The translations under genes and the position numbers were made by a program. The notes below the pieces were generated by a model that searched no databases, was not told the DNA's origin, and saw only the letters and a program-made list of their open reading frames with translations. DNA of 35,687 nt from a bacterium (GTDB taxonomy: Bacteria; Bacillota; Clostridia; Lachnospirales; Lachnospiraceae): positions 1-35,687 of the forward strand of contig CAVHZK010000141.1 of assembly GCA_963640215.1 (NCBI GenBank), given 5' to 3'. Below are positions 19,943-35,687 of the stretch, one piece after another. Every line of letters starts with the position of its first letter. The first letter of the stretch is position 1.

Positions 19943-19944
19943 GC

Positions 19945-20637
19945 ATGTATTATTACTATTATGATTGGACATATATACTTGTACTTATAGGATTGGGTCT
20001 TTCACTGTGGGCATCACACAATGTAAATGGACTCATCAGGCAGTACAGGAAGGTTAATTCCTCCACAGGTCTCACGGCAGCGGAGGCAGCTAAGCACATC
20101 TTAAATGACAATGGCATATATGACGTGTCGGTCAGGATGATATCCGGTGCGGCATCGGATTATTACAGCCCCGCCAACAAGGAGGTCTGTCTCCTTAGCG
20201 AGAATTATAATTCAACTAGCATAGCCAGTATAGGCATAGCGGCACATGAGTGCGGACACGCCATACAGGACGCTACGGGGTATTTCCCACTCACTCTCCA
20301 GAGGAGTCTCGCACCGGTATGCTCATTTGCTTCCAACGCGGGAATATATGCTGTCATCATAGGCTTGTTTATCTCATCTACACCGCTCTTAAATATAGGC
20401 ATTATATTATTTTCATTGGGAGTGGCATTCTCTGTATTGCTGCTTCCGATAGAATACAACGCCTCCAACCGCGCTTTAAGGATACTTGAGGGCGAGCGGC
20501 TGATGCAGGGCGAGGATCTGGCTGCAGCCAAGAAGGTGCTCAGAGCAGCCGGACTTACTTATGTGGCGGCAGCGACAGCTTCGATACTGCAGTTATTGAG
20601 GCTATTGATGCTAGCCAGAGGACGCAGAGACCGATGA
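19945..20637 (+). CDS. YugP-like putative neutral zinc metallopeptidase (membrane protein)
   Basis: HECGHAIQ (HExxH) between an N-terminal TM helix and C-terminal TM helices. Starts 2 nt after the fmt stop, and its stop overlaps the rsmB start (ATGA). Confidence 0.8.
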   Translation: MYYYYYDWTYILVLIGLGLSLWASHNVNGLIRQYRKVNSSTGLTAAEAAKHILNDNGIYDVSVRMISGAASDYYSPANKEVCLLSENYNSTSIASIGIAAHECGHAIQDATGYFPLTLQRSLAPVCSFASNAGIYAVIIGLFISSTPLLNIGIILFSLGVAFSVLLLPIEYNASNRALRILEGERLMQGEDLAAAKKVLRAAGLTYVAAATASILQLLRLLMLARGRRDR

Positions 20638-22019: not shown

Positions 22020-22082
22020 GCAAGCAACCATGCCAGCGCTTTTGCTGGTGCCACATATAATGAAAGTACGGATTGCTGCGCG

Positions 22083-23177
22083 ATGGCGCGCTCTCGCATG
22101 GATAAGACAGACCTTGGCGAATTAAATTTCATAGAGATGGAAGACCTGCTCATGAGTCTCGGAGAGCCTAAGTTCAGGGCAAGGCAGCTCTACGAATGGC
22201 TGCATGTTAAGCACGTCACAAGCTTTGACGAAATGCTTAACATCCCCAAGGCGCTGAGAGAGAAACTCGACGCCAAGTACCGCATCACAGTCATGCAGGC
22301 TGAGGATGTACTTATCTCCAAGATAGACGGGACACGCAAATATATATTTGCATTATATGACGGCAATGTCATAGAGGCTGTGCTGATGAAGTACAGGCAC
22401 GGCAACACGGTCTGCATAAGCTCGCAGGTAGGCTGCGCCATGGGATGCCGCTTCTGTGCCTCGACCATTGACGGCTGCGTGCGCAACCTAAGCGCCGCAG
22501 AGATGCTGTCAGAGGTCTACAGAATAGAGTCAGACTTAGGTGAGCGCATATCCAATATAGTGATGATGGGTTCGGGAGAGCCGCTCGCCAATTATGATGA
22601 GACCGTCAGGTTCCTGCGTATGATATCTGACGAGCACGGCACAAATATATCGGCAAGAAACATCACAGTCAGCACCTGCGGCATAGTTCCAGGCATAGAG
22701 AGACTCTCTGACGAGGGGCTGCCCGTGACCTTGGCATTGAGTCTTCACGCACCGACTCAGGACAAGAGGCTAGAGATTATGCCCATAGCCGCAAGCTATG
22801 AGCTTGGCGAGGTGCTTAGAGCCTGTGCTGATTATTATAGCAAGACCGGCAGACGCTTAAGCTTTGAGTATTCCGTGGTAAGCGGAGTAAATGACAGCGA
22901 CGATGAGGCGCATTTACTTGTGAAGCTGCTTAAAGCTTACGCACGAGGCTTGAGGGGACATGAGGGAGCATTTCATGTCAATATCATACCGGTCAATCCG
23001 ATAGAGGAGAGGAATTATCTAAGTCCCGACAGGGACAGAGTTGAACGCTTCAGACAGATATTGGAGCAAAACGGCATAAATGCTACGGTAAGGAGAGAGA
23101 TGGGCAGAGATATAAGCTCTGCCTGCGGACAGCTCAGGAGGAGGCATATTAAGAATGCAAATCCAAGCATTAACTGA
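22083..23177 (+). CDS. rlmN: 23S rRNA/tRNA (adenine-C2)-methyltransferase RlmN (radical SAM)
   Basis: FRARQLYEWLH N-terminus, radical-SAM CxxxCxxC (GCAMGCRFCAS), and C-terminal SSACGQL with the conserved Cys. An alternative start exists at 22098. Confidence 0.92.
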   Translation: MARSRMDKTDLGELNFIEMEDLLMSLGEPKFRARQLYEWLHVKHVTSFDEMLNIPKALREKLDAKYRITVMQAEDVLISKIDGTRKYIFALYDGNVIEAVLMKYRHGNTVCISSQVGCAMGCRFCASTIDGCVRNLSAAEMLSEVYRIESDLGERISNIVMMGSGEPLANYDETVRFLRMISDEHGTNISARNITVSTCGIVPGIERLSDEGLPVTLALSLHAPTQDKRLEIMPIAASYELGEVLRACADYYSKTGRRLSFEYSVVSGVNDSDDEAHLLVKLLKAYARGLRGHEGAFHVNIIPVNPIEERNYLSPDRDRVERFRQILEQNGINATVRREMGRDISSACGQLRRRHIKNANPSIN

Positions 23178-23904
23178 CATAGGCAGGAAACGGCAGGTCA
23201 ATCAGGATTACATATTCCAGAGTACCGAGCCGGTTGGAGCATTTCCCAACCTGTTTATATTGGCAGACGGCATGGGAGGACACAGAGGCGGAGACTTTGC
23301 GTCCAAATATCTGACCGAGACCATGGTCGGATACATATCGCAGAACAGAAATGAGGACATTATCAAGGTACTGAAGAGTGCCATAGGCATGTCCAATACG
23401 CTTGTGTACGAGAAATCCCATTCTGATCCGGCTCTTAACGGCATGGGCTCCACTATGGTGGCAGCAGTTATCCGTGACGGCATACTTACCGTGGCAAATG
23501 TGGGAGATTCGAGACTTTACATTATCCGCGACGGCATAACTCAGGTCACCAAGGATCATTCCTATGTCGAGGAGCAGGTTGCAAACGGCAATATGGAGAG
23601 ATACTCCGACGAATATAACAGGAAGAAAAACATCATCACGAGGGCAGTCGGCATAGAGGACAGCGTAAAGGCTGATTATTTCGAGGTGGACTTAGTAAAA
23701 AATGACTACATTCTGATATGCTCAGACGGACTAACTAACATGGTTGACGATGACACGATATTTGCAGTTATATCCGGTCACGGCAGTATGCAATACAAGA
23801 CAAATACTCTCATAGAGGCTGCCAATGAGAACGGCGGCAATGACAATATAGCAGTTATACTTATCAAATACGAATCCGGGGACGGTGAGACTGATGTTAA
23901 ATAA
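23155..23904 (+). CDS. prpC: PP2C-family Ser/Thr protein phosphatase (PrpC/Stp)
   Basis: TDIGRKRQVNQDY, ADGMGGH and CSDGL motifs. Overlaps the rlmN 3' end by 23 nt. Confidence 0.9.
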   Translation: MQIQALTDIGRKRQVNQDYIFQSTEPVGAFPNLFILADGMGGHRGGDFASKYLTETMVGYISQNRNEDIIKVLKSAIGMSNTLVYEKSHSDPALNGMGSTMVAAVIRDGILTVANVGDSRLYIIRDGITQVTKDHSYVEEQVANGNMERYSDEYNRKKNIITRAVGIEDSVKADYFEVDLVKNDYILICSDGLTNMVDDDTIFAVISGHGSMQYKTNTLIEAANENGGNDNIAVILIKYESGDGETDVK

Positions 23905-26296
23905 CGGCGACATACTTGACGGAAGATATCGGATAGTCTCCAAGATAGGTCAGGGCGGCATGGCGGCAGTATACAGAGCCCGCGACCTTAAGTTAGAGAG
24001 GGACGTAGCCATTAAGCTGCTCAAACGGGAATATTCGCAGGATGCGGAATTCATAGAGCGGTTTAAGAATGAGGCGCGCTCAGCAGCCAAGCTGTCTCAT
24101 TCCAATATAGTAGCAGCCTACGATATAGTAAACAGCGGCGACATGCACTATATAGTCATGGAGCTTGTTGAGGGTATAACCCTGCGTGACTATATCGCGA
24201 GAAAGGGCAGGCTCTCCAACAAGGAGACCATAGGTACTGCTCTGCAGACTGCGGAGGGCTTGAGTGAGGCGCACAGAAACGGCATAATCCACAGGGATAT
24301 CAAGAGTCAGAATATCATTATCTCCAAGGAAGGCCGTATCAAGATAGGGGATTTTGGCATAGCCAAGGCGGCAAGCACTGACAACAGCGGACAACCAGTC
24401 ATAGGCTCGGCACATTATATAGCGCCTGAGCAGGCAGCAGGCGGAGAGGCGGATGCACGCTCGGATCTCTACTCCCTCGGCATATCCATGTACGAGATGA
24501 TAACGGGTCGCCTGCCATTCCAGGGTGAGGATGCACAGAATGTCATCATGGCGCACATGCACGATGCCATGGTGCCACCCAATGTATATAACAGCGGCAT
24601 CTACCCCGCTCTCAACGATATCATCATCAAGGCGACCAAGAAGTCACCTGAGGACAGATACCAGTCGGCAGAGGAGCTGATAGAAGATCTAAAGCATGCG
24701 GCAGCAGAGCCGAACGGACATTTTGTGAAGATGTATGACTCTGTTCCGTCCGGAAGCCATGAGGGCGTGGATAATGCTGGAACCTTGGGCGGCAGCACGG
24801 ATCATACTGACGTAGCAGCGGGTGCAGCTGCTCACTTGGGCACAACAGCGGCGGGTACCCCAGACTCAGCCGGCAGCGACAACTTAGGCAGAGCTTTTAC
24901 ATCGGATGCAGAGCAGGGCATGGGAGCTCATGCTGCCGGCAGCAGCCAAAGTGGTACAGAGTCAGAGCACAAAGGCAGCTCACTTGAGGATTTCCTCAAC
25001 GGTGAGGATGATGACTACGAGGTTAAGCGTCATGCGCACAGAGGCAGCAGGGGCGGCATCTTGGAGAGCTATGAGGACTCCAAGACCAAGCTGATGATAG
25101 CCGGCATAACCGCTGCTGTGGTCGTATTGGCTCTAATCATAGGCATGTTTGTATTGCAATCGGGAAACACCGCACACGATGCCGCAGAGTCCAAGCTCCA
25201 GAGTACTGTGAGCGAGACGACCACCTCCAAGAGTGAGGAGACCGACAAGGACGCGGATTATACCTTGAGCATACAGGGCGAGGATATAATGCCTGATCTC
25301 ATAGGCAAGACCGTAGATGAGGCGAGGGCACAGCTTGCGACTATACGTATGAGCATGGATTCGTCCACTACGGATTATTCGGATAAGTATGCCAAGGGCA
25401 CGATTATGAATCAGAGTCCTGCCGCCAATGAGGTACTTACCTCAGACTCGACAGTCTATGTTACAGTCTCACTTGGTAAGAGGACAGATTATGTGTTAGA
25501 CAATCTCAAGAACATGAGCCGCGAGGATGCCGTGAAGGTCATAGAGGAAGCCGGTATGGCAGTAAGCGACACGGACGACAGAGCATTTGTCGAGGATGTG
25601 GCAGAGGATCAGGTCGCAGGATATAAGGAGGACGGCACCACTCAGGACGGCAAGCGCCGCGTGAAGCTCGTGCTTAGCTATGGCAAGAAGGATGATTATG
25701 TGCAGATGCCGGATATATGCAATATCTCTATAAGCGATGTAGCCGATATCCTCAAGGAAAGCAACCTGTCCATAGGTACCATTACGGCGCTGAATACCTC
25801 TGATGCCGTAGAGACCGACGTGGTAACTCAGTCTGTCAAGGCGCAGGATTACGTCAAGAAGGGCTCGACCATAGATGTCACCGTCTGCGTGGGAGACGAC
25901 GATCACATAGCTGACGGCACAGTATTTGATGATGTAAATGAGCTCCTGTCGATATTAAGTCCCAAGGAGAGCCAGTCAAGCTCGCAGAGCAGCAGCTCAA
26001 CTGACGGAGCTTATTATTACGGCAGCATAGATACTACCTGCATAGTAGGAGAGGCGGAAGGCCCCGGAGCCTCCAACAATCTGTTAGTGGCAGTAAGGCT
26101 GAGCCAGAGAGTGGACGGTTCCATGGAATATACGGCCATCAGTGAACCTATACCCGTAGCCGCCGGAACCAAGATACCTGTGTCCTACCGCAATATCAAG
26201 GGAGCCTACGGAGTGACAGAGGGCACCGTCGAGGTATATGATGTGGACTCAGGCACGGTCTACAGCTCCTACGTCATCAAGTTCTCCAAGAAATAA
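23894..26296 (+). CDS. prkC: Ser/Thr protein kinase with extracellular PASTA repeats (PrkC/Stk)
   Basis: Hanks kinase motifs GQGGMAAVY, HRDIKSQN, DFG and APE. Single TM helix (LMIAGITAAVVVLALIIGMFVL). Three PASTA-like repeats and an extra C-terminal beta-rich domain. ATG at 23894 preferred; GTG at 23885 is possible. Confidence 0.9.
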   Translation: MLNNGDILDGRYRIVSKIGQGGMAAVYRARDLKLERDVAIKLLKREYSQDAEFIERFKNEARSAAKLSHSNIVAAYDIVNSGDMHYIVMELVEGITLRDYIARKGRLSNKETIGTALQTAEGLSEAHRNGIIHRDIKSQNIIISKEGRIKIGDFGIAKAASTDNSGQPVIGSAHYIAPEQAAGGEADARSDLYSLGISMYEMITGRLPFQGEDAQNVIMAHMHDAMVPPNVYNSGIYPALNDIIIKATKKSPEDRYQSAEELIEDLKHAAAEPNGHFVKMYDSVPSGSHEGVDNAGTLGGSTDHTDVAAGAAAHLGTTAAGTPDSAGSDNLGRAFTSDAEQGMGAHAAGSSQSGTESEHKGSSLEDFLNGEDDDYEVKRHAHRGSRGGILESYEDSKTKLMIAGITAAVVVLALIIGMFVLQSGNTAHDAAESKLQSTVSETTTSKSEETDKDADYTLSIQGEDIMPDLIGKTVDEARAQLATIRMSMDSSTTDYSDKYAKGTIMNQSPAANEVLTSDSTVYVTVSLGKRTDYVLDNLKNMSREDAVKVIEEAGMAVSDTDDRAFVEDVAEDQVAGYKEDGTTQDGKRRVKLVLSYGKKDDYVQMPDICNISISDVADILKESNLSIGTITALNTSDAVETDVVTQSVKAQDYVKKGSTIDVTVCVGDDDHIADGTVFDDVNELLSILSPKESQSSSQSSSSTDGAYYYGSIDTTCIVGEAEGPGASNNLLVAVRLSQRVDGSMEYTAISEPIPVAAGTKIPVSYRNIKGAYGVTEGTVEVYDVDSGTVYSSYVIKFSKK

Positions 26297-26300
26297 GCGG

Positions 26301-27185
26301 ATGACTGGCAAGATAATCAAGGGAATAGGCGGTTTTTACTATATACATGCTCCGCAGACAGACAGGGTATATTCGTGCAGGGCTGTAGGCATCTTCAGGA
26401 GGATAGGCATCAAGCCGCTCGTAGGAGATAATGCCGAGTTTGAGCTCTTGGATGAATACAGACAGGAGGGGAGTCTGACCCGCATACTCGAGAGGGACAA
26501 CGTACTCATACGTCCAGCAGTAGCCAATATAGATCAGGCGCTGGTGGTGTTCGCGGTAAGAGAGCCGGATCTCAACAGCAACCTCCTCGACCGCTTCCTT
26601 ATATATATGGGAATGCAGGATATACCGGTGAGTATATTCCTAAACAAATCCGATTTAGATCGTGACGGACTGATGGAGCATTATCGTGATATATACGAGA
26701 GGGCAGGATACAGAGTCCTGTGCGGTTCCACGGAGCATGAGACCGATGTAGACCGGATAAAGCTTATCTGCAAGGGGAGGACTACTGTCCTTGCCGGTCC
26801 GTCAGGAGTAGGCAAATCCTCGCTCACCAATAAGCTCAACGACGGGGTATGCATGGAGGTCGGCGAGCTCTCAGCCAAGATTAAGCGTGGCAGGCAGACG
26901 ACGAGACACACAGAGCTGTTCACGATAGACGCAGAGAGTTATGTGTTGGATACTCCCGGATTTACCTCCTTAAATGTCACAGGCATAGACAAGGAGCAGT
27001 TGGGCTTTTATTTTGAGGAATTTAATGCCTACTTCGATAAATGCAAATACTCTGTCTGCAGTCATATATATGAATCAGCAGATATCTGTGCCGTAAAGCG
27101 TGCAGTAGAGGACGGCAGCATAGCGCAAGAGCGCTATGACAATTACAGACTTATCTACGAGGAGCTAAAGAGTCGCGAGCGGTGA
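26301..27185 (+). CDS. rsgA: Ribosome small-subunit-dependent GTPase A (RsgA/CpgA)
   Basis: Circularly permuted GTPase: NKSDL precedes GPSGVGKSS. C-terminal zinc-finger motif (Cys/His cluster in CKYSVCSHIYESADICAV). Start at MTGKIIKGIGGFYYI (ATG 26301); the track start at 26238 lies inside prkC. Confidence 0.92.
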   Translation: MTGKIIKGIGGFYYIHAPQTDRVYSCRAVGIFRRIGIKPLVGDNAEFELLDEYRQEGSLTRILERDNVLIRPAVANIDQALVVFAVREPDLNSNLLDRFLIYMGMQDIPVSIFLNKSDLDRDGLMEHYRDIYERAGYRVLCGSTEHETDVDRIKLICKGRTTVLAGPSGVGKSSLTNKLNDGVCMEVGELSAKIKRGRQTTRHTELFTIDAESYVLDTPGFTSLNVTGIDKEQLGFYFEEFNAYFDKCKYSVCSHIYESADICAVKRAVEDGSIAQERYDNYRLIYEELKSRER

Positions 27186-27340
27186 TATGGCGGAGACTAC
27201 TGAGACTGAGCAGCGAAAGCCGCGAGTTTCGCTGCAAGCCGAGCCTTAAACAAGGAAGGACTCGCCAATCCGCAGCAAACCCGATAATCCGGAACGGATA
27301 AAGCATGCGTACGGCTACACAAACAAGGAAGAGGAAGAAT

Positions 27341-28006
27341 ATGGATTACATACTAGCGCCATCAATATTATCAGCTGATTTTGCAAGGCTGGGCGAGGCA
27401 GTCGAGACTGTATCAAAGGCAGGCGCTCAATACATACATATAGATGTCATGGACGGTATGTTTGTGCCAAATATCAGCTTCGGCATGCCGGTCATTAAGT
27501 CTGTTAGACCTTGCACAGACAAGGTCTTCGACGTGCACCTTATGATAGAGGAGCCGATAAGATATATCAGGGAATTCGCAGATGCCGGAGCTGATATCAT
27601 CACTGTGCACCATGAGGCGTGCAAGCATTTGGACAGGACAGTGCAGGCAATCCGGGAATGTGGCTGCCGCGCGGGCGTGGCGCTCAATCCTGCGACTCCG
27701 ATACAGGTATTGGAGGATATCCTGGGGCAGTTAGATATGGTGCTCCTCATGAGCGTCAATCCGGGCTTTGGCGGGCAGAACTATATCCCCTATGTTACCG
27801 AGAAGATAATCAAGCTCCGTCGCATCTTAGACGACAGGGGACTTAGCACAGATATAGAGCTTGACGGAGGCGTTACTACGGGCAATGTGCAGGAGCTTGT
27901 GCGGGCAGGCGCCAATATATTTGTTGCGGGCTCCGCTGTATTTAAGGGAGATCCGGCGGCAAATGTGAGAGCTTTTCTAAGTGAGCTTAAGACTGTCAAG
28001 GTATGA
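27341..28006 (+). CDS. rpe: Ribulose-phosphate 3-epimerase
   Basis: [15 protein letters not shown] and DVHLM motifs. ATG at 27341 is preceded by a purine-rich RBS (AGGAAGAGGAAG). Confidence 0.93.
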
Positions 28007-28066
28007 AATGATGAGCAGACTTCGAGCAGGGTGATAGAGCATAGGAAGACTTAAGGACGAAAATCC

Positions 28067-28756
28067 ATGATAAAAGACAACATTGAGGAAGTAAGAAACA
28101 ATATACGCGTAGCCTGCGAGCGTGTAGGGCGCGATCCGTCAGAGGTTACCTTGCTTGCCGTGAGCAAAACCAAGCCTATCTCCATGATCAGAGAGTGTAT
28201 GGAGGCAGGACAGAGAGCCTTCGGTGAAAATTATGTGCAGGAGCTTGAAGAAAAGTATGCCCAGCTTGGAAACACAGTTGACTGGCACATGATAGGTCAT
28301 CTCCAGAGAAACAAGGTCAAATACGTCATAGATAAGGTGAGCCTCATACATTCTGTGGATAGCTTGAGACTTGCAGAGCAGATACAGAAGGAGGCTGCCA
28401 AGCTTGAGCATACCGCGCGCGTGCTCTTGGAAGTAAATGTCGCGCACGAGGAGAGTAAGTGGGGATTTACCATAGATGAGACCATAGACGCGGTTAAGGC
28501 AGTAGGTGCCATGCCAGATGTAAAGGTATGCGGCCTCATGACCTCAGCACCCATCACGGAGGATGCAGAGACCAACAGGCAATATTTCAGAGAGCTTAGA
28601 CAGCTCTATGATCACATCGGAGCACTGCATATCCCAAATGTAGATATGCAGGTATTATCCATGGGCATGACAGGTGACTACGTGGTAGCAGTCGAAGAGG
28701 GCTCGACCTTGGTACGCGTCGGTACAGGCATATTCGGCGCGAGAGATTATACTTAA
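28067..28756 (+). CDS. yggS: YggS/YlmE-family pyridoxal-phosphate homeostasis protein
   Basis: PLP lysine motif LLAVSKTK, HMIGHLQRNK and MGMTGDY, as in the alanine-racemase N-terminal fold family. Confidence 0.88.
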   Translation: MIKDNIEEVRNNIRVACERVGRDPSEVTLLAVSKTKPISMIRECMEAGQRAFGENYVQELEEKYAQLGNTVDWHMIGHLQRNKVKYVIDKVSLIHSVDSLRLAEQIQKEAAKLEHTARVLLEVNVAHEESKWGFTIDETIDAVKAVGAMPDVKVCGLMTSAPITEDAETNRQYFRELRQLYDHIGALHIPNVDMQVLSMGMTGDYVVAVEEGSTLVRVGTGIFGARDYT

Positions 28757-28782
28757 GCAGACAGGCATGAAAGAGGTACGAT

Positions 28783-29124
28783 ATGGGACTCTTCGAGAAG
28801 AAGGTTGACATATTTAGGAAGAAAGACAGCGAGACTTGGCACGAGATTAAGCAGGCGCTTAAGGAAGCCGGCTTCAAGGGAGTGAGTGCGGGACATTATC
28901 TGCAAGACTCAGTCATGGCAGGCGGCTGCGGAGCCAAGCTTGATCCGAGAGATTTCGGTGCCAAGGGCAAGATAGACCATGATATATACTATATCAAGGT
29001 CAAGGAATCTCAGGCTGAGGCGGCAAGAGCCGAGCTCACCAGGAGAGGCATAGTTGCTGAGGTTAAGTCACAGGCAGAGCTGATGACGGATGCGGCACTC
29101 AAGGTAAGGGATGGAGAGCTCTGA
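28783..29124 (+). CDS. Small (113 aa) soluble hypothetical protein
   Basis: AAGAGG RBS upstream and codon usage like its neighbours. No recognised motif. A possible small alpha/beta signal-transduction-like fold is speculation only. Confidence 0.5.
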   Translation: MGLFEKKVDIFRKKDSETWHEIKQALKEAGFKGVSAGHYLQDSVMAGGCGAKLDPRDFGAKGKIDHDIYYIKVKESQAEAARAELTRRGIVAEVKSQAELMTDAALKVRDGEL

Positions 29125-29277
29125 CGGACAGGCTCGCCTAAGCAAAGGCATATTTGCTTGATTCATTGGCAATTTGTTAGATAAATAACAAACGATCAAC
29201 ATTCTTTTAGTGCAATTTCTACATAAAGACCCCGATTTTTTATACACATTTTCATTAATCTGAAGTCAGATTGTGTA

Positions 29278-29306
29278 TTGATTTCGTGCTATTTAAGTTT
29301 TATATA
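29278..29306 (+). promoter_or_regulatory. Strong sigma-A type promoter for the CstA-family gene
   Basis: TTGATT (29278-29283), exact 17-nt spacer, TATATA (29301-29306), within a 230-nt AT-rich intergenic region. It implies a ~44-nt leader ahead of the 29357 start. Confidence 0.55.
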
Positions 29307-29356
29307 TGTACTATAAAGAAGTTCCCTTTGCAGGCGGGAGCTTTGGGAGGTTTGTT

Positions 29357-30832
29357 ATGATTAGTTTTTTCCTTTGTCTTATAATCCTCGTTGTAGGTTA
29401 CTTTACCTACGGCAAGATTGTAAATGACACCTTGGGACCGGATGACAGAGAGACACCTGCCATTGCCATCAATGACGGAGTAGACTTCGTCGTTATGCCG
29501 CAGTGGAAGCTGTTCCTTGTTCAGCTGCTCAATATAGCAGGTCTTGGTCCTATCTTCGGTGCACTTCAGGGTGCATTGTGGGGACCCATAGTATTCCTGT
29601 GGATTACCTTCGGTACTATCTTCGCCGGTGCGGTTCACGATTATTTCTCCGGTATGCTTTCCGAGAGAAACAGGGGCGCATCCATTTCCGAGGTTACGGG
29701 TATATACTTAGGCCCTGTTATGAAGAACATCATGCGTGTATTCGCAGTTGTTCTCCTGATCATGGTAGGTACAGTATTTGCAGTAGGTCCCGCAGGACTT
29801 ATTGTTAAGCTACTCACGGAGAAGGGCGTCAGCGGCGCATTTGCATCCACTACCGTATGGCTTACCATCGTACTTATCTACTACTTCATCGCGACTTTCC
29901 TGTCAATCGACAAGATTATCGGCAGGATCTATCCGATATTTGGTCTCTGCCTTATCGGTATGGCTGTCGGAGTTGCAGGAGGAATCGTGCTCAATCCGGA
30001 TTTCGTTATTCCGGAGATATGGGCTAACTTCAGGAGTATGCACCCGGATGATACACCGGTATGGAGCTTCATGTTCATAACCGTAGCCTGCGGAGCAGTG
30101 TCGGGCTTCCACTCAACACAGTCACCGCTTATGGCACGCTGCCTTGCATCAGAGAAGCAGGGACAGTTCGTATTCTACGGCGCCATGGTAGCAGAGGGTA
30201 TTATAGCTCTTATCTGGGCTGCAGCAGGCTGCTCAATCTATGAGGTCAAGGAAGGTCTCAACACCGGACTTCAGGAGGCGTTGGCAGCAGGACAGTCAGC
30301 AGCTATCTATGATGTATCGCTCAAGACCATGGGCAGCATGGGAGTTATCCTTGCCATGATCGGCGTTGTTGTATGCCCCATCACATCGGGAGATACAGCA
30401 TTCCGTTCAGCAAGACTTACTCTGTCTGACTGGTTCGGCATCGAGCAGGAGTCATATGCAGGCAGACTTAAGCTCTGCATCCCGGTACTTGGTATCGGCG
30501 CACTCCTCGGCTACGGCAACACCTTCGGTGTGCTCAGCTATCAGGTAGTATGGAGATACTTCTCATGGTCTAACCAGACACTGGCCATGCTCGTGCTCTG
30601 GACAGGTGCTATGTATCTTGCCATGAACAAGAAGAACTTCTGGATATGCGCTGTTCCGGCTACATTTATGAGTGCCGTATCGGTTACTTATTTCTGCATG
30701 GCAGGCGAGTGCCTCGGTATGATTCCGTTCTTCAAGAACAATACCGCAGTTGCTTATCCTGTAGGTATAATCTTTGCAGTTGCTTTCCTTGCGCTCTTCA
30801 TGACTAAGTCCAAGAAGTATCGCACGGCATAA
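29357..30832 (+). CDS. cstA: Carbon starvation protein A (CstA) family transporter (peptide/pyruvate uptake type)
   Basis: Polytopic membrane protein with the CstA-like N-terminal region (NIAGLGPIFGALQGALWGP). GGGAGG RBS 6 nt upstream of ATG 29357. The track start at 29306 lies inside the predicted -10 box. Confidence 0.85.
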   Translation: MISFFLCLIILVVGYFTYGKIVNDTLGPDDRETPAIAINDGVDFVVMPQWKLFLVQLLNIAGLGPIFGALQGALWGPIVFLWITFGTIFAGAVHDYFSGMLSERNRGASISEVTGIYLGPVMKNIMRVFAVVLLIMVGTVFAVGPAGLIVKLLTEKGVSGAFASTTVWLTIVLIYYFIATFLSIDKIIGRIYPIFGLCLIGMAVGVAGGIVLNPDFVIPEIWANFRSMHPDDTPVWSFMFITVACGAVSGFHSTQSPLMARCLASEKQGQFVFYGAMVAEGIIALIWAAAGCSIYEVKEGLNTGLQEALAAGQSAAIYDVSLKTMGSMGVILAMIGVVVCPITSGDTAFRSARLTLSDWFGIEQESYAGRLKLCIPVLGIGALLGYGNTFGVLSYQVVWRYFSWSNQTLAMLVLWTGAMYLAMNKKNFWICAVPATFMSAVSVTYFCMAGECLGMIPFFKNNTAVAYPVGIIFAVAFLALFMTKSKKYRTA

Positions 30833-30848
30833 GCACAGCGATTGCTAT

Positions 30849-30920
30849 AGCGTGTAAGCGTGAAGCAATTCGTTACATTTATACTGCAAGATGCCTGTAA
30901 ATATACAGGCATGGAGATTC
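30849..30920 (+). promoter_or_regulatory. Conserved ~72-nt element, copy A (25-nt box + 9-bp hairpin + GGAGATTC); candidate cis-regulatory RNA or specialised promoter/operator
   Basis: AGCGTGTAAGCGTGAAGCAATTCGT (30849-30873) matches 35105-35129 at 23 of 25 positions. The hairpin ATGCCTGTA-AATA-TACAGGCAT (30891-30912) corresponds to the copy-B hairpin, with compensatory changes and nearly identical spacing. Confidence 0.45.
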
Positions 30921-30931
30921 GATAAAGTATT

Positions 30932-30999
30932 AGCCGGCTCACAGGCTTACGCATGGCAGTCTGCCTGCAGTCCATGCGCACTGAGCCGGCTCGTTTTTT
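30932..30999 (+). terminator. Rho-independent terminator / possible attenuator
   Basis: Outer stem AGCCGGCTCA (30932-30941) / TGAGCCGGCT (30982-30991) and inner stem CGCATGG / CCATGCG, followed by a T6 run (30994-30999). It ends 5 nt before the AGGAGG RBS of the next gene. Confidence 0.7.
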
Positions 31000-31016
31000 C
31001 TAATAGGAGGAGTCCT

Positions 31017-32039
31017 ATGCTCTTTGCTCCTAAGAAATTAGGCAATACAGCCTTATCGCCGGACGAGCTTGCGGCAGACAAGAAAGCCTGCATCAAGATA
31101 GGTCCCTGCGGCATAGGCGAGAAAGCCATATATCTTAATTCATTTTTCTTGGACCGCATATACTATGTGCGCAACAATGACGTGCGCAGGATATATAAGC
31201 GCATCGCCATGACCAAGGGCGGCTTCACCGGTAAGGGCATGTTCGGCTCTATGCCCTATCTCGTCGTTCTGCTATCAGACGGCACTGAGAAGCAGTGCAA
31301 TTTCAAGTACGAATCGGATGTCGATAATTTTATAAACAGGTTTCATGCGATGCACCCTGAGGTACCGACACACAGCGCGGCGGCAGAGCAGCGTATAGCA
31401 GCAGAGCAACGCAAGGAAGAAGCCCGTTACCTAAAGAGCCTGAGTCCGGAGGCAGAGCGCGCGGTAAAGGAGCTTAGGCGTGCCTCGGATTATCTTGATG
31501 CCGAGCCAGCACTATACAGTGAGCTCTCACGCAGCGCCAAGCAGAAACGCATAGTCGACAATATCAAGCCGGGATACAAGATATTCGCATGCATCATAGT
31601 TTTATTCTCACTTGCAGCCTGCGCGTACGGTGTATATGCAGTTATTGCGAAAAAAGGCTTGCAGGTGTACTTCCTGCTGTTCGGATTTGCATTTTTATTC
31701 TATGCCATGAGTATGCAGGTGCTCCCGACAGGACGCAATAATGCCAATAATGCCAAGCGTGAGTTTGATGCGGCAGTGAACAATATAAGCGAATATATCT
31801 CGGGATATGAGGGAACATTTCCGATCCCTGCACAATATGCACACCCATCGACCTTGTCACGCATGATCAGGATCATCAGAGAGGGAAGGGCGCAGAGCAT
31901 AGGCGACAGCTACAAGCTTATGAAGGATGAGCTTAAGGCTATAAATAACACAGTTACGGTATCACAGCTCGAATATGATGAGATAACAGCTATCAAGCCG
32001 ATGTTCCTTAACTGTGCTTATGCGGACAGCATAGATTAA
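31017..32039 (+). CDS. Uncharacterised 340-aa membrane protein (cytoplasmic N-domain, coiled coil, TM hairpin, C-domain); first gene of the MoxR/VWA operon
   Basis: AGGAGG at 31005-31010 and ATG at 31017 (MLFAPKKLGN). Two hydrophobic helices (KIFACIIVLFSLAACAYGVYAVIA and VYFLLFGFAFLFYAMSMQVL). The track start at 30891 runs through the terminator and is rejected. Confidence 0.7.
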   Translation: MLFAPKKLGNTALSPDELAADKKACIKIGPCGIGEKAIYLNSFFLDRIYYVRNNDVRRIYKRIAMTKGGFTGKGMFGSMPYLVVLLSDGTEKQCNFKYESDVDNFINRFHAMHPEVPTHSAAAEQRIAAEQRKEEARYLKSLSPEAERAVKELRRASDYLDAEPALYSELSRSAKQKRIVDNIKPGYKIFACIIVLFSLAACAYGVYAVIAKKGLQVYFLLFGFAFLFYAMSMQVLPTGRNNANNAKREFDAAVNNISEYISGYEGTFPIPAQYAHPSTLSRMIRIIREGRAQSIGDSYKLMKDELKAINNTVTVSQLEYDEITAIKPMFLNCAYADSID

Positions 32040-32073
32040 AGACCGTAGACAGAGGATACAGAGGAAAACACCG

Positions 32074-32997
32074 ATGAGTGAGGTTTTGGATTTCTTAAGA
32101 GGAGAGGGCATAAACCCAGAGCTTATAGCGGGCGTAGAGAGCTTTAGGGATGCACACAGGGCACCGGAGGCATACCTTAAGCGCATACCGGAGCCGGAAT
32201 ACTTTTTCTACGGCAGAGAGGTCTGGGAGCAGGCGATAGCAGCAGTGCTCGCAGGCAAGAATATACTGCTTGCAGGTCCCAAGGCGACAGGCAAGAATGT
32301 GCTGGCGGACAATCTTGCCGCCTTATTTATGCGCCCTGAGTGGAATGTTTCCTTCCATATCAATATGGACGCGTCATATCTCATAGGCACGGACACCTAC
32401 GACGGCTCCAAGGTGACATTCAGAGCAGGTCCGGTGTATCTTGCCGCGGTATATGGCGGCTTCGGTGTCTTGGATGAGATAAATATGGCTAAAAATGAGG
32501 CTTTAGCAGTGCTGCACTCTGCACTTGATTACCGCCGCATGATAGATGTGCCGGGATACGATCGGATAGAGATGGACCCTGCCTGCCGCTTTATAGCCAC
32601 CATGAACTACGGATATGCCGGTACGAGAGAGCTAAATGAGGCACTCAGCTCGCGCTTTGTTGTCATCAGTCTGTCGCCTATAGCAGAGACAGATCTGGTG
32701 CGACTCATAGCAAGGCGCTTTCCTAAGATGCAGGAGAGCTTCACCCTACAATTTGCCAAGCTCTTCAAGGAGATAGATAATAAAGCGCAAAATGCAGAGA
32801 TATCGGAGCGTGCGCTTGATTTAAGAGGCCTGCTTGATGCGATAAGCCTGATAGAGACAGGCCTTAAGGCGGGGGCGGCACTTAAGCTGTGCATAGTCAA
32901 CAAGACCTTTGACTTATATGAGAGGAAGCTCATCAGTGATGTGATAAATGCACGCATACCCGAGGAGCTTGATAGGACAGCAGTATTCAGGGCGTAA
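32074..32997 (+). CDS. MoxR-class AAA+ ATPase of the CbbQ/NorQ (AAA_5) type
   Basis: P-loop ILLAGPKATGKN (atypical: N where S/T is expected). Walker B FGVLDEIN, sensor-1 FIATMN, and LSSRF (the conserved MoxR motif usually assigned as the Arg finger/sensor 2). About 300 aa, a single AAA module, as in CbbQ/NorQ. Confidence 0.85.
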   Translation: MSEVLDFLRGEGINPELIAGVESFRDAHRAPEAYLKRIPEPEYFFYGREVWEQAIAAVLAGKNILLAGPKATGKNVLADNLAALFMRPEWNVSFHINMDASYLIGTDTYDGSKVTFRAGPVYLAAVYGGFGVLDEINMAKNEALAVLHSALDYRRMIDVPGYDRIEMDPACRFIATMNYGYAGTRELNEALSSRFVVISLSPIAETDLVRLIARRFPKMQESFTLQFAKLFKEIDNKAQNAEISERALDLRGLLDAISLIETGLKAGAALKLCIVNKTFDLYERKLISDVINARIPEELDRTAVFRA

Positions 32998-33000
32998 GAG

Positions 33001-34929
33001 ATGATTAAGAGATATTACTCTCCTGATTCGAGGCGTATGCTGAATGTAATATGGAATGCAGCGGGACGGTATGATTTTGAGCCGTCCTTTTTGGCATTTC
33101 ATACTGACGGCGAGCCTGATTTCTATTTCAATATAATCATAGGACTGGCTGAAAAATGGCTGGATATGGAGAAAATATCGGCGTTCTTCGATAGCTTCGC
33201 CTACGCAAGAGAGTCTGACGAATACTCCGAATACGTCTGGCTCGATCTCGAGAGCTGCCTGTATCATAAGGAGCTTCCCGAGCGCCCTGTGCTCACCGAG
33301 CTTAGGAAGGCACATGCCGAGGCTTTCTTCAGAGTCCAGCAGCAATTGTCCAAGCAGCAGATGGAAGTCATGAGTATGGGCGTATATACCCAGCAGCAGG
33401 CAAGATGGGCGGAGGTTACCGGCAGGAGACTTCCGGCGATGTCTGCCAGGGAGCAGGGCATGTACGAGGCTCTGAATATCGGCGGGGCCTGTGACACGGA
33501 CGAGGTAATAGAGAAGCTTAAAGCCTTCATCACACAGTATTGCGGGTTTGATTTTGATGAATCAGGCTATGAGAGAGCACACAAGCCCAGTCTCATAAGG
33601 AGACTCTGGGGCAAGCATGTCCACTCACAATATAAGAATACAGACCGCCTGATAATAAGGAGCGGCAGCGGTACGGGCGACCCGCGGGATGCAGTGCATC
33701 TCAATCAGCAGACGGGATTCAAGACAGATACAGACAAGGCGGCACGAGACAGAGCATATATAGAAGGCTGCTTCGGCAAGAGCCTCTACCGCGAGGAAGA
33801 GCTCAAGGAGATAGAGAGGGAGCTCTGCGTAAAGGAGGACGCAGGCTGCAGACTTTGGTTCACGGACGTAAGTGTTGACAGCGCGTCAGACAGCGAGAAG
33901 AATATTGACAGTGAAGGCAGGATAGAGGCAGATTACGTCGGTACCAATGCCAGCGCAGGTACCGACGCCAACATAGGGGTCAGCGCCAACGCCAATAACA
34001 ATAATAAAGCTGTTGGTGGTGGAATCATAAGCCACAGCGCTGGCATTAACATTAGCAGCACCGACCGCAAGGAGATAGCCGAAGTGCGTCGCTCTGCCTT
34101 AGAGCAGCGCAGGCGTAACGAGGAATACTTTAAGAGAAATTCACTTCAGATAAGAGAGAGCATACGCAAGCTCTCATCAGAGATAGAGGTACTCATGAGT
34201 ACCTTCCTTAAGCATCTGCCGGAGCGCGCCGAGGCAGGACGCATAGTTGCAAGCAGGGCATATAGGGCGGCGCTCTTTAATGACAGCAGGATATTCCTAA
34301 GAGACGGCGATGAGACGGAAAACAATATATGTATAGACATATTACTGGATGCCTCACAGTCTCGTATGAACTCGCAGGAGCTCATAGCAGCAGAGGCCTA
34401 TGTGCTTGCCGAGAGCATGAGACGTGCAGCCGTGCCCGTACAGGTAGCGGCATTTCGCAGCCTGCGCGGATATACTGTTATCGAGAGACTAAAAGCGTAC
34501 GACGATAAAAATGCGGAAAATATATTCGGTTATTTCGCATCAGGCTGGAACCGTGACGCCTTGGCTATCAAGGGAGTCGGCAGGATGATACGCGATGTAT
34601 CAGAGCAGGACAGCACCAAGAGGCATATACTGCTCATACTCACGGACGCAAGCCCCAACGACTCGACACCGATAGCTCCCTGCGGAACACGTACCAAGCC
34701 CGCAAATTATGAGGGACTCCCGCCGGTCGAGGCAGCAGAGTCTGCCGTGAAGGAGCTCAAGAGAGAGCATATACATACCGCTGCCGTATTTCACGGAGCA
34801 ACGGCACATCTTGAAAATGCATATCGCATCTATGGCAAGGAGTACATACGCATACGCAGCCTCGCACAGCTGTCGGCTGGATTTACCGATCTGATGCAAT
34901 CAGCCTTGCAGGAGATGGAGGCGGAATAG
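33001..34929 (+). CDS. von Willebrand factor A (VWA) protein of the NorD/CbbO type, partner of the preceding ATPase
   Basis: Starts 3 nt after the ATPase stop. C-terminal VWA domain with MIDAS DASQS (DxSxS), NRD motif (SGWNRDALA) and LILTDASPND. Long helical N-terminal region with an Asn/Ala/Gly/Ser low-complexity insert. Confidence 0.8.
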   Translation: MIKRYYSPDSRRMLNVIWNAAGRYDFEPSFLAFHTDGEPDFYFNIIIGLAEKWLDMEKISAFFDSFAYARESDEYSEYVWLDLESCLYHKELPERPVLTELRKAHAEAFFRVQQQLSKQQMEVMSMGVYTQQQARWAEVTGRRLPAMSAREQGMYEALNIGGACDTDEVIEKLKAFITQYCGFDFDESGYERAHKPSLIRRLWGKHVHSQYKNTDRLIIRSGSGTGDPRDAVHLNQQTGFKTDTDKAARDRAYIEGCFGKSLYREEELKEIERELCVKEDAGCRLWFTDVSVDSASDSEKNIDSEGRIEADYVGTNASAGTDANIGVSANANNNNKAVGGGIISHSAGINISSTDRKEIAEVRRSALEQRRRNEEYFKRNSLQIRESIRKLSSEIEVLMSTFLKHLPERAEAGRIVASRAYRAALFNDSRIFLRDGDETENNICIDILLDASQSRMNSQELIAAEAYVLAESMRRAAVPVQVAAFRSLRGYTVIERLKAYDDKNAENIFGYFASGWNRDALAIKGVGRMIRDVSEQDSTKRHILLILTDASPNDSTPIAPCGTRTKPANYEGLPPVEAAESAVKELKREHIHTAAVFHGATAHLENAYRIYGKEYIRIRSLAQLSAGFTDLMQSALQEMEAE

Positions 34930-35043
34930 GATCTGAATCAGAGTCTCGTTATACAGTCTGCATTCAGGCTTGATTCGCTCTCAACGCGTGGTACTTAGGT
35001 GTACAACCAACAAAAGTGTAGAACACATTTTCTTCACAAATAA

Positions 35044-35070
35044 TTAGCACTCAACGCTTGCAAGTGCTAA
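35044..35070 (+). promoter_or_regulatory. CIRCE operator (HrcA binding site)
   Basis: TTAGCACTC-N9-AAGTGCTAA against the consensus TTAGCACTC-N9-GAGTGCTAA. Left arm is perfect, spacing is exact, and the right arm has one mismatch. Upstream of clpB. Confidence 0.75.
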
Positions 35071-35086
35071 CAACATGTGCTATAAA
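35058..35086 (+). promoter_or_regulatory. Putative sigma-A promoter overlapping CIRCE
   Basis: TTGCAA (35058-35063), 17-nt spacer, TGc-TATAAA extended -10 (35078-35086). Confidence 0.45.
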
Positions 35087-35104
35087 AGGGTTGACGGACG
35101 CGGG

Positions 35105-35175
35105 AGCGTGTAAGCGCGAAGCAATCCGTACTTTTGTTATATGTGGTGCTTGCGAATGCGCAGGCATGGAAAATC
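35105..35175 (+). promoter_or_regulatory. Conserved ~72-nt element, copy B, in the clpB upstream/leader region
   Basis: AGCGTGTAAGCGCGAAGCAATCCGT (35105-35129). Hairpin GTGCTTGCG-AATG-CGCAGGCAT (35146-35167), then GGAAAATC. Collinear with copy A. Confidence 0.45.
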
Positions 35176-35201
35176 AGACTAATGCGAGGAGGTAAATGAT
35201 T

Positions 35202-35687
35202 ATGAACATTAACAAATTTACCCAGAGATCTATAGAAGCAGTCAACGGCTGCGAATCCGTTGCAACAGAATACGGCAATCAGCAGATAGAGCAGGCACAT
35301 CTCCTATACAGTCTATTGAATGTAGAGGACAGCCTTATCGCTAAGCTACTGCAGAGGATGAATATTGACACCGCAAGCTTTGTGAAGGACCTTACCGATA
35401 TTATATCCAAGTATCCCAAGGTAAGCGGCGGCAACATGTATTTCTCCAATGACTGCAACCGCGTGCTCACAGAGGCGGAGAATCACTCCAAGGCGATGGG
35501 AGACGAGTATGTGTCAGTCGAGCACATTTTCCTTGCCATCTTGGACAGGGCAGACAAGGATATGAAGCAGCTCTTTGCAAGATATAATGTTACAAAGGAC
35601 GGCTTTCTCAAGGTGCTCTCCGAGGTAAGAGGCAATCAGAAGGTCATGTCCGACAATCCGGAGGCGACCTACGATACGCTCAAGAAA
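35202..35687 (+). CDS. clpB: ATP-dependent chaperone/disaggregase ClpB, N-terminal 162 codons (continues beyond the window)
   Basis: GAGGAGG RBS 9 nt upstream of the ATG. MNINKFTQRSIEAV...IEQAHLLYSLL...PKVSGG...GDEYVSVEHIFLAIL is the typical ClpB Clp_N repeat domain. The frame stays open to the window end, so it is absent from the ORF track. Confidence 0.88.
   Translation, partial: MNINKFTQRSIEAVNGCESVATEYGNQQIEQAHLLYSLLNVEDSLIAKLLQRMNIDTASFVKDLTDIISKYPKVSGGNMYFSNDCNRVLTEAENHSKAMGDEYVSVEHIFLAILDRADKDMKQLFARYNVTKDGFLKVLSEVRGNQKVMSDNPEATYDTLKK

Follow-up and report, generated by a model that had tools for sequence, protein, structure and literature searches.

A NorQ/NorD-like ATPase and VWA protein pair is genetically linked to a CstA-family transporter and a two-TM membrane protein in gut and rumen Clostridia

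Three consecutive genes of a Lachnospiraceae genome, coding for a two-TM membrane protein (gene 1), an AAA+ ATPase (gene 2) and a VWA protein (gene 3), make up the downstream end of a unit of five genes that is centred on the adjacent CstA-type transporter (Table 1). They are located in a stretch of 35,687 nucleotides (contig CAVHZK010000141.1, assembly GCA_963640215.1), which we refer to as the window. The ATPase and the VWA protein form a NorQD-like pair in tight genetic linkage with a CstA-family transporter and an uncharacterised membrane partner, which suggests that Clostridia of the gut and rumen use an ATP-driven remodelling machine similar to NorQ/NorD to service a membrane transporter.

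Table 1. Positions of the features discussed in the text, numbered from the first letter of the window.
Feature	Position	Strand	Description
p113 gene	28783-29124	+	113-aa soluble protein; newly linked fifth component; weak DUF2007-like similarity
Compact CstA-family transporter gene	29306-30832	+	508 aa; invariant neighbour of gene 1; likely client or partner
~77-nt element	30849-30925	+	second copy upstream of clpB, 35105-35180
Terminator-like hairpin AGCCGGCTCA...TGAGCCGGCT and T-run	30932-30999	+	6 nt before the RBS of gene 1
Gene 1	31017-32039	+	340 aa; two-TM membrane protein of an unnamed family
Gene 2	32074-32997	+	307 aa; single-module AAA_5 (MoxR-class) ATPase, NorQ/CbbQ-like
Gene 3	33001-34929	+	642 aa; NorD-like VWA protein

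The open reading frames of genes 1-3 and all the motifs quoted in the first-pass annotation of this DNA were recovered in the sequence (GVLDEIN, FIATMN and LSSRF in gene 2; LLDASQS, GWNRD and LTDASPND in gene 3). The genes are separated by 34 nt (genes 1 and 2) and 3 nt (genes 2 and 3), and their GC content (0.49-0.52) is similar to that of the rest of the window. The ATG of gene 1 is 6 nt 3' of a GGAGG sequence (31006-31010), and the N-terminus of the protein aligns with those of its homologues; a longer version starting at 30891 is an artefact of the listing of open reading frames.

The loci that we inspected are the 80 best of 539 genome matches to gene 1, plus a few anchored look-ups. In 72 of the 72 GTDB species loci whose upstream flank is 1.7 kb or longer, a CstA gene is present directly upstream of the gene-1 homologue and on the same strand; the count is 79 of the 80 loci if partial matches are included. 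The first-pass annotation had recognised no client in the window; this is contradicted by the CstA-family gene, which immediately precedes gene 1. A role of the membrane protein as client or adaptor would fit the data. A gene-1 homologue with 32% identity belongs to a locus whose order is permuted (gene1-CstA-AAA_5-VWA), and the gene of another one (33% identity) shares 4 nt with the CstA gene and has genes for a histidine kinase and for a LytTR regulator on its downstream side; btsT, a CstA-family gene of E. coli, has a regulator of this type (PMC10653868). The outer flanking genes of the module are different in each independent locus looked up, and a yggS homologue occurs in 1 of 90 loci. 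CstA and gene 1, always encoded side by side in the inspected loci, are the core of the module, and their products most likely form one membrane complex.

The transporter is assigned to the CstA family (TC 2.A.114) by its match to Pfam PF02554 (8.9e-54; 183.6 bits versus a gathering score of 27). Over residues 27-311 and 359-461, its identity with E. coli CstA is 29%. With the NCBIfam equivalog model of the E. coli-type pyruvate/H+ symporter (NF011590) it scores 92.7 bits, far below the cut-off of 1188, so that the substrate of the latter cannot be transferred to it with confidence; by family precedent, the window CstA may transport pyruvate or peptides. Our search for solved structures related in sequence to this protein returned none.

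Gene 1 has no match in Pfam, NCBIfam, PADLOC, PHROG or the PDB, which bears out the earlier description of a two-TM protein outside any named family. Its AlphaFold2 model (pLDDT 92) starts with a beta domain, followed by a stalk of long helices, by the TM hairpin (segments 185-211 and 216-232) and by a C-domain that is helical. The N-terminal domain had also been described as possibly PH-like: the local Foldseek matches to PH domains (USP37, GRK2, MTMR6 and chain k of 7xsx, an RNA polymerase II-nucleosome complex) are weak (probability 0.84-0.97, E 0.25-0.8). By the positive-inside rule, the PH-like N-domain and the helical C-domain would face the cytoplasm. The family has 421 clusters at 50% identity and 1814 at 90%, and relatives are present in 539 GTDB species, mostly Lachnospiraceae and Oscillospiraceae of the rumen and gut.

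Whether homologues of gene 1 co-occur with the ATPase/VWA pair in other genomes had been named as a point on which the three-gene system of the first-pass annotation depends. The answer is divided: the pair is present in 29 of the 57 gene-1 loci with enough flank and neither of its genes in 28 of them, which goes against that system in half of the cases. No locus among these 57 has just one of the two genes. The loci that have the pair are scattered over the gene-1 tree, the set having been repeatedly gained or lost, and the conservation of gene 1 and of CstA is the same whether or not the pair is present. The core plainly functions without the accessory set at the locus in half of the lineages. 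Only two positions of gene 1 differ between the two groups, H113 (93% versus 38%) and E135, so that no clear docking surface is apparent. The four look-ups anchored on the VWA gene all gave CstA-gene1-AAA_5-VWA.

A third gene belongs with the pair. Homologues of p113 were found in 18 of 31 GTDB species loci that have both the ATPase and the VWA gene and in 0 of 28 loci without them (Fisher 3e-7). They occupy variable positions, directly preceding cstA or directly following the VWA gene, and can be on either strand; in all three look-ups anchored on p113, this gene adjoins VWA-AAA-gene1-CstA. With an E-value limit of 1, seven of 16 members of the p113 family match DUF2007 (PF09413), and the best match (4e-4) scores below the gathering score; the protein of the window itself reaches 16.3 bits for a cut-off of 25.7. 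Of the "three-gene operon", the tight spacing of the genes is confirmed, but the conserved units are a core (CstA and gene 1) and an accessory set (AAA, VWA and p113).

These observations bear on the earlier proposal of a self-contained three-gene MoxR-VWA system, in which the membrane protein would be the sole partner (client, adaptor or effector) and an element in common with clpB would point to a stress or proteostasis role. The proposal has in its favour the narrow gaps between the genes, the CIRCE-like repeat that marks clpB as a heat-shock gene, and the element itself, which does exist: a 25-nt core, within an aligned similarity of about 90 nt, is present in 2 copies versus 0 expected, one of them in the clpB leader. 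However, the element (about 77 nt) has no Rfam match and was found upstream of gene 1 in none of the relatives, and the clpB N-terminus was found near gene-1 homologues in 0 of 80 related loci, as opposed to the constant presence of CstA. Since neither the adjacency of clpB nor the shared element is conserved, the stress inference falls; the element is probably not part of the system. The loci devoid of the pair, in which gene 1 is no less conserved, also argue against the proposal, and so does the position of the hairpin and T-run, which are between cstA and gene 1 and not upstream of a separate promoter. The neighbourhood data largely refute this proposal, and we now regard it as very improbable.

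Regarding the hairpin, the folding of the RNA between cstA and gene 1 has a z-score of -3.15, and a hairpin followed by a T-run was detected in 48 of 83 related cstA-gene1 spacers in a lenient scan without control. It is possible that this is a partial terminator or an attenuator. The co-transcription of cstA and gene 1 is not assured, because of this terminator-like hairpin between them.

The description of gene 2 as a single-module MoxR-class AAA+ ATPase holds. Its match to Pfam AAA_5 (1.1e-19) is well above the cut-off (71.3 versus 22 bits), and Walker A, Walker B, sensor 1 and the SRF motif are kept across 44 homologues; Walker A reads GKN, not GK[ST]. Its nearest solved single-module relatives in the PDB are NorQ (1.8e-15) and CbbQ (2.9e-14). 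The E-value of Midasin is stronger than that of NorQ because it is summed over several AAA modules; the best single Midasin module scores 35 bits, versus 51.5 bits for NorQ. The C-terminal domain of NorQ and CbbQ (Pfam CbbQ_C) is absent from the matches of gene 2 at E up to 0.1, and no named NCBIfam model scores above threshold, the only match being GvpN (32 bits for a cut-off of 267).

In the AlphaFold2 model of the gene 3 product, a helical N-domain (residues 40-290, approximately) is followed by a variable disordered linker (294-347), a helical hairpin (353-403) that may be a pore finger, and the VWA domain (430-642). The best Foldseek match is the VWA domain of NorD (9qh6_G, 4.4e-10; 9qhd_G, 1.2e-9), followed by the MIDAS domain of human MDN1 (2.3e-8), and phmmer detects NorD at 2e-3. 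The MIDAS residues D450, S452, S454, T548 and D549 do not vary among 33 homologues. The fold and this conservation agree with the first reading of the protein as NorD-like with an intact MIDAS. The only Pfam match of gene 3, to the VWA family CobT_C, is below threshold (19.7 bits for a cut-off of 21), and it is faint in some homologues.

This last similarity, together with sub-threshold similarities to CobS and to the phage "porphyrin biosynthesis" (CobS-like) family, would fit a reading in which the ATPase, the VWA protein and p113 are a chelatase-like or metal-insertion set of the CobS/CobT or NorQD type, whose client is encoded elsewhere and which merely rides beside CstA and gene 1. The repeated gain and loss of the set would also fit, as would the fact that no sequence feature of CstA or gene 1 clearly tracks the pair. 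On the contrary, all the look-ups anchored on the VWA gene or on p113 adjoin CstA-gene1 despite unrelated outer flanks, and the linkage outlasts the change in gene order seen with the 32%-identical homologue. Gene 3 has 235 homologues, the best 120 of which match over the full length with scores of at least 531 bits, and the four that were looked up share the CstA-gene1 context. No cobN, nor, cbb, cox or gvp gene is present in any inspected locus. We therefore consider it unlikely that the set is a mere passenger.

MoxR-vWA cores also occur in ternary conflict systems, and one could imagine an anti-phage system whose membrane-disrupting effector is the two-TM protein; Foldseek searches against viral models did return "2TM effector" matches, which are not significant (E 0.16-0.6, probability at most 0.38). 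Yet genes 1-3 have no PADLOC match at E up to 0.1, they lie in a housekeeping region and have a native composition, and no nuclease, protease, TIR or STAND partner is present in any listed locus. The system always accompanies a nutrient transporter gene and, far from being sporadic, is shared by hundreds of species, so we find a role in conflict barely credible.

The reading that we favour, with moderate confidence, is a transporter-centred module, in which an accessory set that resembles NorQD and includes p113 acts on a CstA/gene-1 core complex. Starting from the observed gene linkage, domain architectures and conservation of catalytic and MIDAS residues, we infer every physical contact, and the direction of the effect, in the following scheme. 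The TM hairpin would anchor gene 1 in the membrane beside CstA. By analogy with NorQD, the helical hairpin of the VWA protein would insert into the pore of the ATPase hexamer, and its MIDAS site and N-domain may hold acidic surfaces on the cytoplasmic side of the CstA/gene-1 complex. ATP hydrolysis would then remodel this complex, either for its assembly or activation or for the gating or regulation of transport, and p113 could be a regulator or a cofactor. A more specific version, that the motor spends ATP to assemble, activate or gate the CstA transporter via the two-TM protein as adaptor, with the DUF2007-like protein as sensor or cofactor, is put forward tentatively.

To our knowledge, the only clients of Q/D-type MoxR-VWA chaperones that are understood are nitric oxide reductase, Rubisco, cobaltochelatase and the pre-ribosome. 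If our proposal is correct, a nutrient transporter would be a new class of client, and CstA transporters of gut and rumen Firmicutes would have a new layer of regulation. The uptake of pyruvate-like or peptide substrates by the organisms concerned bears on cross-feeding. This raises the questions of why CstA transporters need a partner, and of whether a MoxR-VWA motor can act on a secondary transporter. The study also defines two protein families without a Pfam model, that of the 340-aa partner and that of the 113-aa protein.

As regards known systems, we know of no AAA+/VWA pair in the CstA and BtsT systems of E. coli. The window transporter is shorter than E. coli CstA (508 versus 701 aa), and its 340-aa partner is unrelated to DUF466 or to any part of E. 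coli CstA. The likeness is in the arrangement, a CstA-family gene followed by a dedicated partner gene: in E. coli, the genes of the pyruvate transporters CstA and BtsT are followed by that of a small DUF466 protein, YbdD or YjiX (bioRxiv 10.1101/2022.07.06.499078). The LytTR-type two-component system that adjoins one divergent locus is reminiscent of BtsSR, which accompanies btsT.

Regarding the motor, Midasin/Rea1 would share the finger-in-pore logic, its individual AAA modules align with gene 2 and the MIDAS domain of human MDN1 matches the VWA domain of gene 3, but Midasin is a eukaryotic single-chain motor with six modules that acts on pre-ribosomes. CobS/CobT, the motor of the aerobic cobaltochelatase, also combines an AAA_5 ATPase and a VWA protein, and gene 2 has a weak similarity to CobS and matches the phage CobS-like genes of phrog_249; however, all the matches to CobS/CobT are below family thresholds, and the module contains neither a CobN partner nor B12 genes. 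CbbQ/CbbO, the Rubisco activase, is likewise a Q/D-type AAA+-VWA pair, in which client capture is MIDAS-dependent, and gene 2 matches the CbbQ structures 5c3c (3e-14) and 6l1q (4e-10). It differs in that no Rubisco or carboxysome genes are present here, and the client would be membrane-embedded.

NorQ/NorD is a close parallel, despite a low identity in the VWA domain (about 19-21%), the lack of a CbbQ_C match and the additional 113-aa protein. No norCB, cbbLS/Rubisco or cox client genes are found in the window or in the loci with listed gene content; the neighbour here is a secondary transporter with a novel two-TM protein, rather than a relative of the haem-copper oxidases. We know of no metal centre in CstA proteins. 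Both systems consist of a single-module MoxR-class AAA+ ATPase and a partner of about 600 aa (N-domain, linker, helical finger and C-terminal VWA domain with a MIDAS), NorD being the best fold match of gene 3 and NorQ the best single-module sequence match of gene 2. The client of NorQD, whose mechanism has been described (PMC13036017), is nitric oxide reductase, an integral membrane protein that is approached from the cytoplasm, as we propose for the CstA/gene-1 complex.

The invariant partner of gene 1, the gene of a membrane protein with two transmembrane (TM) segments, is a transporter gene. Neighbourhoods were counted in the 80 best loci of gene-1 homologues: a homologue of the ORF that precedes gene 1 lies directly upstream, on the same strand, in all 72 whose upstream flank reaches 1.7 kb or more; with partial matches included, the figure is 79 of the 80. 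This ORF encodes a CstA-family transporter (Pfam PF02554, 8.9e-54), which is compact, 29% identical to E. coli CstA over the core, and far under the equivalog threshold of the E. coli-type CstA. The first-pass annotation had seen no client in the window; the adjoining transporter, as the invariant partner of gene 1, contradicts that statement.

The same annotation had tied gene 1 to the AAA/VWA pair, that is, gene 2 (a MoxR-class ATPase of the AAA_5 type) and gene 3 (a VWA protein), in a three-gene system, and had proposed a survey of their co-conservation. Genes 2 and 3 do go together, being both present or both missing in every locus with sufficient flank, but the pair is optional beside gene 1, and CstA is the sole invariant partner. 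Of the 57 loci whose downstream flank reaches 3.2 kb or more, only 29 have homologues of genes 2 and 3 after gene 1. In the remaining 28, unrelated, variable genes take this place, and no conserved downstream gene was found in the loci that lack the pair. In a neighbour-joining tree of the gene-1 proteins, loci with and without the pair intermingle, which implies that it was lost or gained repeatedly. The degree of conservation of gene 1, and likewise of CstA, is equal in the two groups. When a docking signature, in the form of AAA/VWA-specific residues, was sought in gene 1 and CstA, only H113 and E135 of gene 1 were found to track the pair, and only H113 (window 31353-31355) did so strongly (conserved in 93% of the positive vs 38% of the negative lineages).

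Look-ups from four diverse gene-3 homologues each led to CstA, followed in order by a protein of 335-344 aa without Pfam match, an AAA_5 protein (307-309 aa) and a VWA protein, with outer flanks that were unrelated from locus to locus. In a divergent locus (L095, 7001-12530), whose gene 1 is 32% identical to that of the window, the order is permuted to gene1-CstA-AAA_5-VWA. In another (L096, 5562-10132; 33% identity), the gene-1 and CstA genes share 4 nt, and the genes after them encode a histidine kinase (HATPase_c_5) and a LytTR response regulator; no AAA/VWA pair is present. This kinase/LytTR pair recalls BtsSR, the pyruvate-sensing system that controls E. coli btsT. Regulators of the LytTR class control btsT, a CstA-family gene of E. 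coli (PMC10653868).

The module has a fifth component, p113, a 113-aa protein encoded just upstream of cstA in the window. Homologues of p113 are found in 18 of 31 GTDB loci with the AAA and VWA genes vs none of 28 without them (Fisher 3e-7, uncorrected for phylogeny), either upstream of cstA or just 3' of the VWA gene and on either strand; that the linkage outlasts such rearrangement speaks for a functional tie. All three look-ups that took p113 as anchor fell beside VWA-AAA-gene1-CstA. The family comprises 217 clusters, every one annotated as hypothetical, and its matches to DUF2007 all stay below threshold.

The layout of genes 1 to 3 is as the first-pass annotation had described it: the ORFs are co-directional, with gaps of 34 nt (genes 1-2) and 3 nt (genes 2-3), all the motifs it had quoted are found in the sequences, and the composition is native (GC of 0.49-0.52, the same as in the remaining window). 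The window spans an entire NCBI contig (35,687 bp). A mechanical ORF list placed the start of gene 1 at 30891. We rejected this start in favour of the ATG at 31017, because the latter has a GGAGG 6 nt before it and the same Met begins 34 homologues. A same-strand housekeeping run precedes the module; its domain-scanned part encodes an RlmN-like protein, a PP2C phosphatase, a PASTA Ser/Thr kinase, RsgA, ribulose-phosphate 3-epimerase and a YggS-like PLP protein. Other genomes do not keep these neighbours beside the module; yggS, for one, was found in 1 of 90 loci.

Features of the CstA/gene-1 region and parts of the gene-3 protein
Feature	Window position	Strand	Length or residues	Remark
Housekeeping run	19004-28756
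p113	28783-29124		113 aa
cstA	29306-30832
Shared element, first copy	30849-30925			cstA/gene-1 spacer
Terminator-like hairpin and T-run	30932-30999			between cstA and gene 1
Gene 1	31017-32039	+	340 aa
Gene 2	32074-32997	+	307 aa
Gene 3	33001-34929	+	642 aa
Gene 3, helical N-domain			about 40-290	AlphaFold2 model
Gene 3, disordered linker	33880-34040		294-347	low-complexity, Ser/Asn/Gly/Ala-rich
Gene 3, helical hairpin			353-403	confident in AlphaFold2 model
Gene 3, VWA domain			430-642	AlphaFold2 model
CIRCE-like inverted repeat	35044-35070
Shared element, second copy	35105-35180			clpB leader

Gene 1 has no sequence match in Pfam, NCBIfam, PADLOC, PHROGs or PDB, and profile and sequence searches of the PDB returned nothing credible. 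The structural check proposed for this protein in the first-pass annotation gave a confident AlphaFold2 model (pLDDT 92): residues 1-112 form an N-terminal beta domain that includes a helix, residues 121-181 form long helices, 185-211 and 216-232 pair as a TM hairpin, and 243-332 make up a helical C-domain. Foldseek found no significant full-length match to it in the PDB or among viral models, and matched PH domains weakly and locally only. Since basic residues flank the TM hairpin on its N- and C-sides, the two soluble domains are probably cytoplasmic. We rejected the idea that gene 1 split off from the C-terminal end of long CstA proteins (hhalign probability of 0.65% against E. coli CstA).

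The gene-1 family comprises 421 clusters at 50% identity and 1814 at 90%; a database look-up found the exact sequences of neither gene 1 nor gene 2 on record. The genome locus scan used a 9-sequence alignment, because an alignment of 35 sequences was too diverse. Relatives are encoded in 539 GTDB species genomes, mostly of Lachnospiraceae, Oscillospiraceae/Ruminococcaceae and Oribacterium, with some Erysipelotrichaceae, and a rumen source is common. The only names given to the homologues are "ATPase P", "DUF308 domain-containing" and "hypothetical"; the first two, carried by several NCBI records, look like propagated misannotations, because no domain match that we found supports either.

The domain calls of the first-pass annotation for genes 2 and 3 were right. 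Gene 2 matches Pfam AAA_5 (1.1e-19) and has the expected motifs. It falls below the family thresholds for NorQ, CbbQ and GvpN. Among solved structures the lowest E-value is that of Midasin, but this is an artefact, because the value adds up several AAA modules: taken singly, the highest-scoring module of Midasin reaches 35 bits, less than NorQ (51.5) and CbbQ (47.7), which are therefore the nearest solved single-module relatives. The Walker A motif (residues 68-75) has the sequence GPKATGKN in nearly all of 44 homologues; an Asn, conserved in at least 95% of them, takes the usual Ser/Thr position of the Mg ligand.

Gene 3 is a NorD-type VWA protein with an intact MIDAS site, whose residues D450, S452, S454, T548 and D549 are invariant. 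Sequence matches are weak (NorD, 2e-3; CobT_C in Pfam, below threshold), and the best Foldseek matches are a VWA fragment of NorD (4.4e-10, 1.2e-9) and the MIDAS domain of human MDN1 (2.3e-8). The AlphaFold2 model, built from 33 homologues (pLDDT 75), has four parts. The linker is absent in some homologues and as long as about 100 residues in others; its equivalent in NorD is the element that the motor stretches. NorD has the same layout of N-domain, linker, finger and VWA domain (PMC13036017). Residues 12-28 at the extreme N-terminus of gene 3 (RRxLNxIWNAAGRYDFEP) are among its most conserved stretches: N15, W18, N19, A20, A21, G22 and Y24 are invariant. The stretch, which is nevertheless modelled with pLDDT <50, has the look of a docking peptide that may serve the ATPase or the client.

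A stress or proteostasis role had been proposed from the adjacent clpB and a shared upstream element. This link fails: the clpB N-terminus was found in 0 of 80 related loci, and the element was not seen ahead of gene 1 in related genomes. The shared element itself is real: about 77-90 nt are common to the cstA/gene-1 spacer and the clpB leader, and the 25-nt core AGCGTGTAAGCGYGAAGCAATYCGT has 2 copies vs 0 expected by chance. It may be a leader RNA, an operator or a small repeat; a search of Rfam (E up to 1) over 28000-35687 gave no match, the element included. A CIRCE-like inverted repeat, TTAGCACTC-N9-AAGTGCTAA, precedes the clpB start (ATG at 35196 or 35202) by about 130 nt and suggests HrcA control of clpB. 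A defence system is disfavoured by the absence of PADLOC matches for genes 1-3, together with the housekeeping setting.

The terminator-like hairpin between cstA and gene 1 is strong and has perfect arms of 10 bp (AGCCGGCTCA/TGAGCCGGCT) followed by the T-run CGTTTTTT, and stops 6 nt short of the gene-1 RBS. A consensus promoter/terminator scan performed no better than on shuffles and missed this hairpin because its loop is long; a lenient scan, run with no control, found a similar hairpin in 48 of 83 related cstA-gene1 spacers. It may be that the hairpin sets differing expression of the transporter and of the downstream genes.

Genetic linkage, architectures and intact catalytic and MIDAS residues are demonstrated, and we are highly confident that the module consists of CstA, gene 1, the AAA and VWA proteins and p113. 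We put the chance that the motor works on the transporter complex at about even. We propose this remodelling mechanism because of the precedent of NorQD, which works from the cytoplasm on an integral membrane enzyme, with MIDAS contacts to acidic surface residues (PMC13036017). CstA and gene 1 would form one membrane complex, whose cytoplasmic face the VWA protein would grip via its MIDAS site and N-domain; its helical hairpin would dock into the pore of a gene-2 hexamer, in the way that NorD docks in NorQ, and ATP hydrolysis would remodel the complex, either to assemble or activate it or to gate it. The protein p113 would be a regulator or a cofactor. Against this mechanism, half of the lineages have a functioning core of CstA and gene 1 without the accessory set (the AAA/VWA pair and p113), neither the gene 1 nor the CstA sequences show a docking signature, and the putative terminator separates cstA from gene 1 in the window.

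Literature searches brought up no paper in which CstA is linked with MoxR, AAA+ or VWA proteins. The known partners of CstA are the small DUF466 proteins YbdD and YjiX (bioRxiv 10.1101/2022.07.06.499078), which are unrelated to those seen here. What is new is the setting of a MoxR-VWA pair of the Q/D type: it has a presumptive new class of client, and both its adaptor family and its small partner are new as well.
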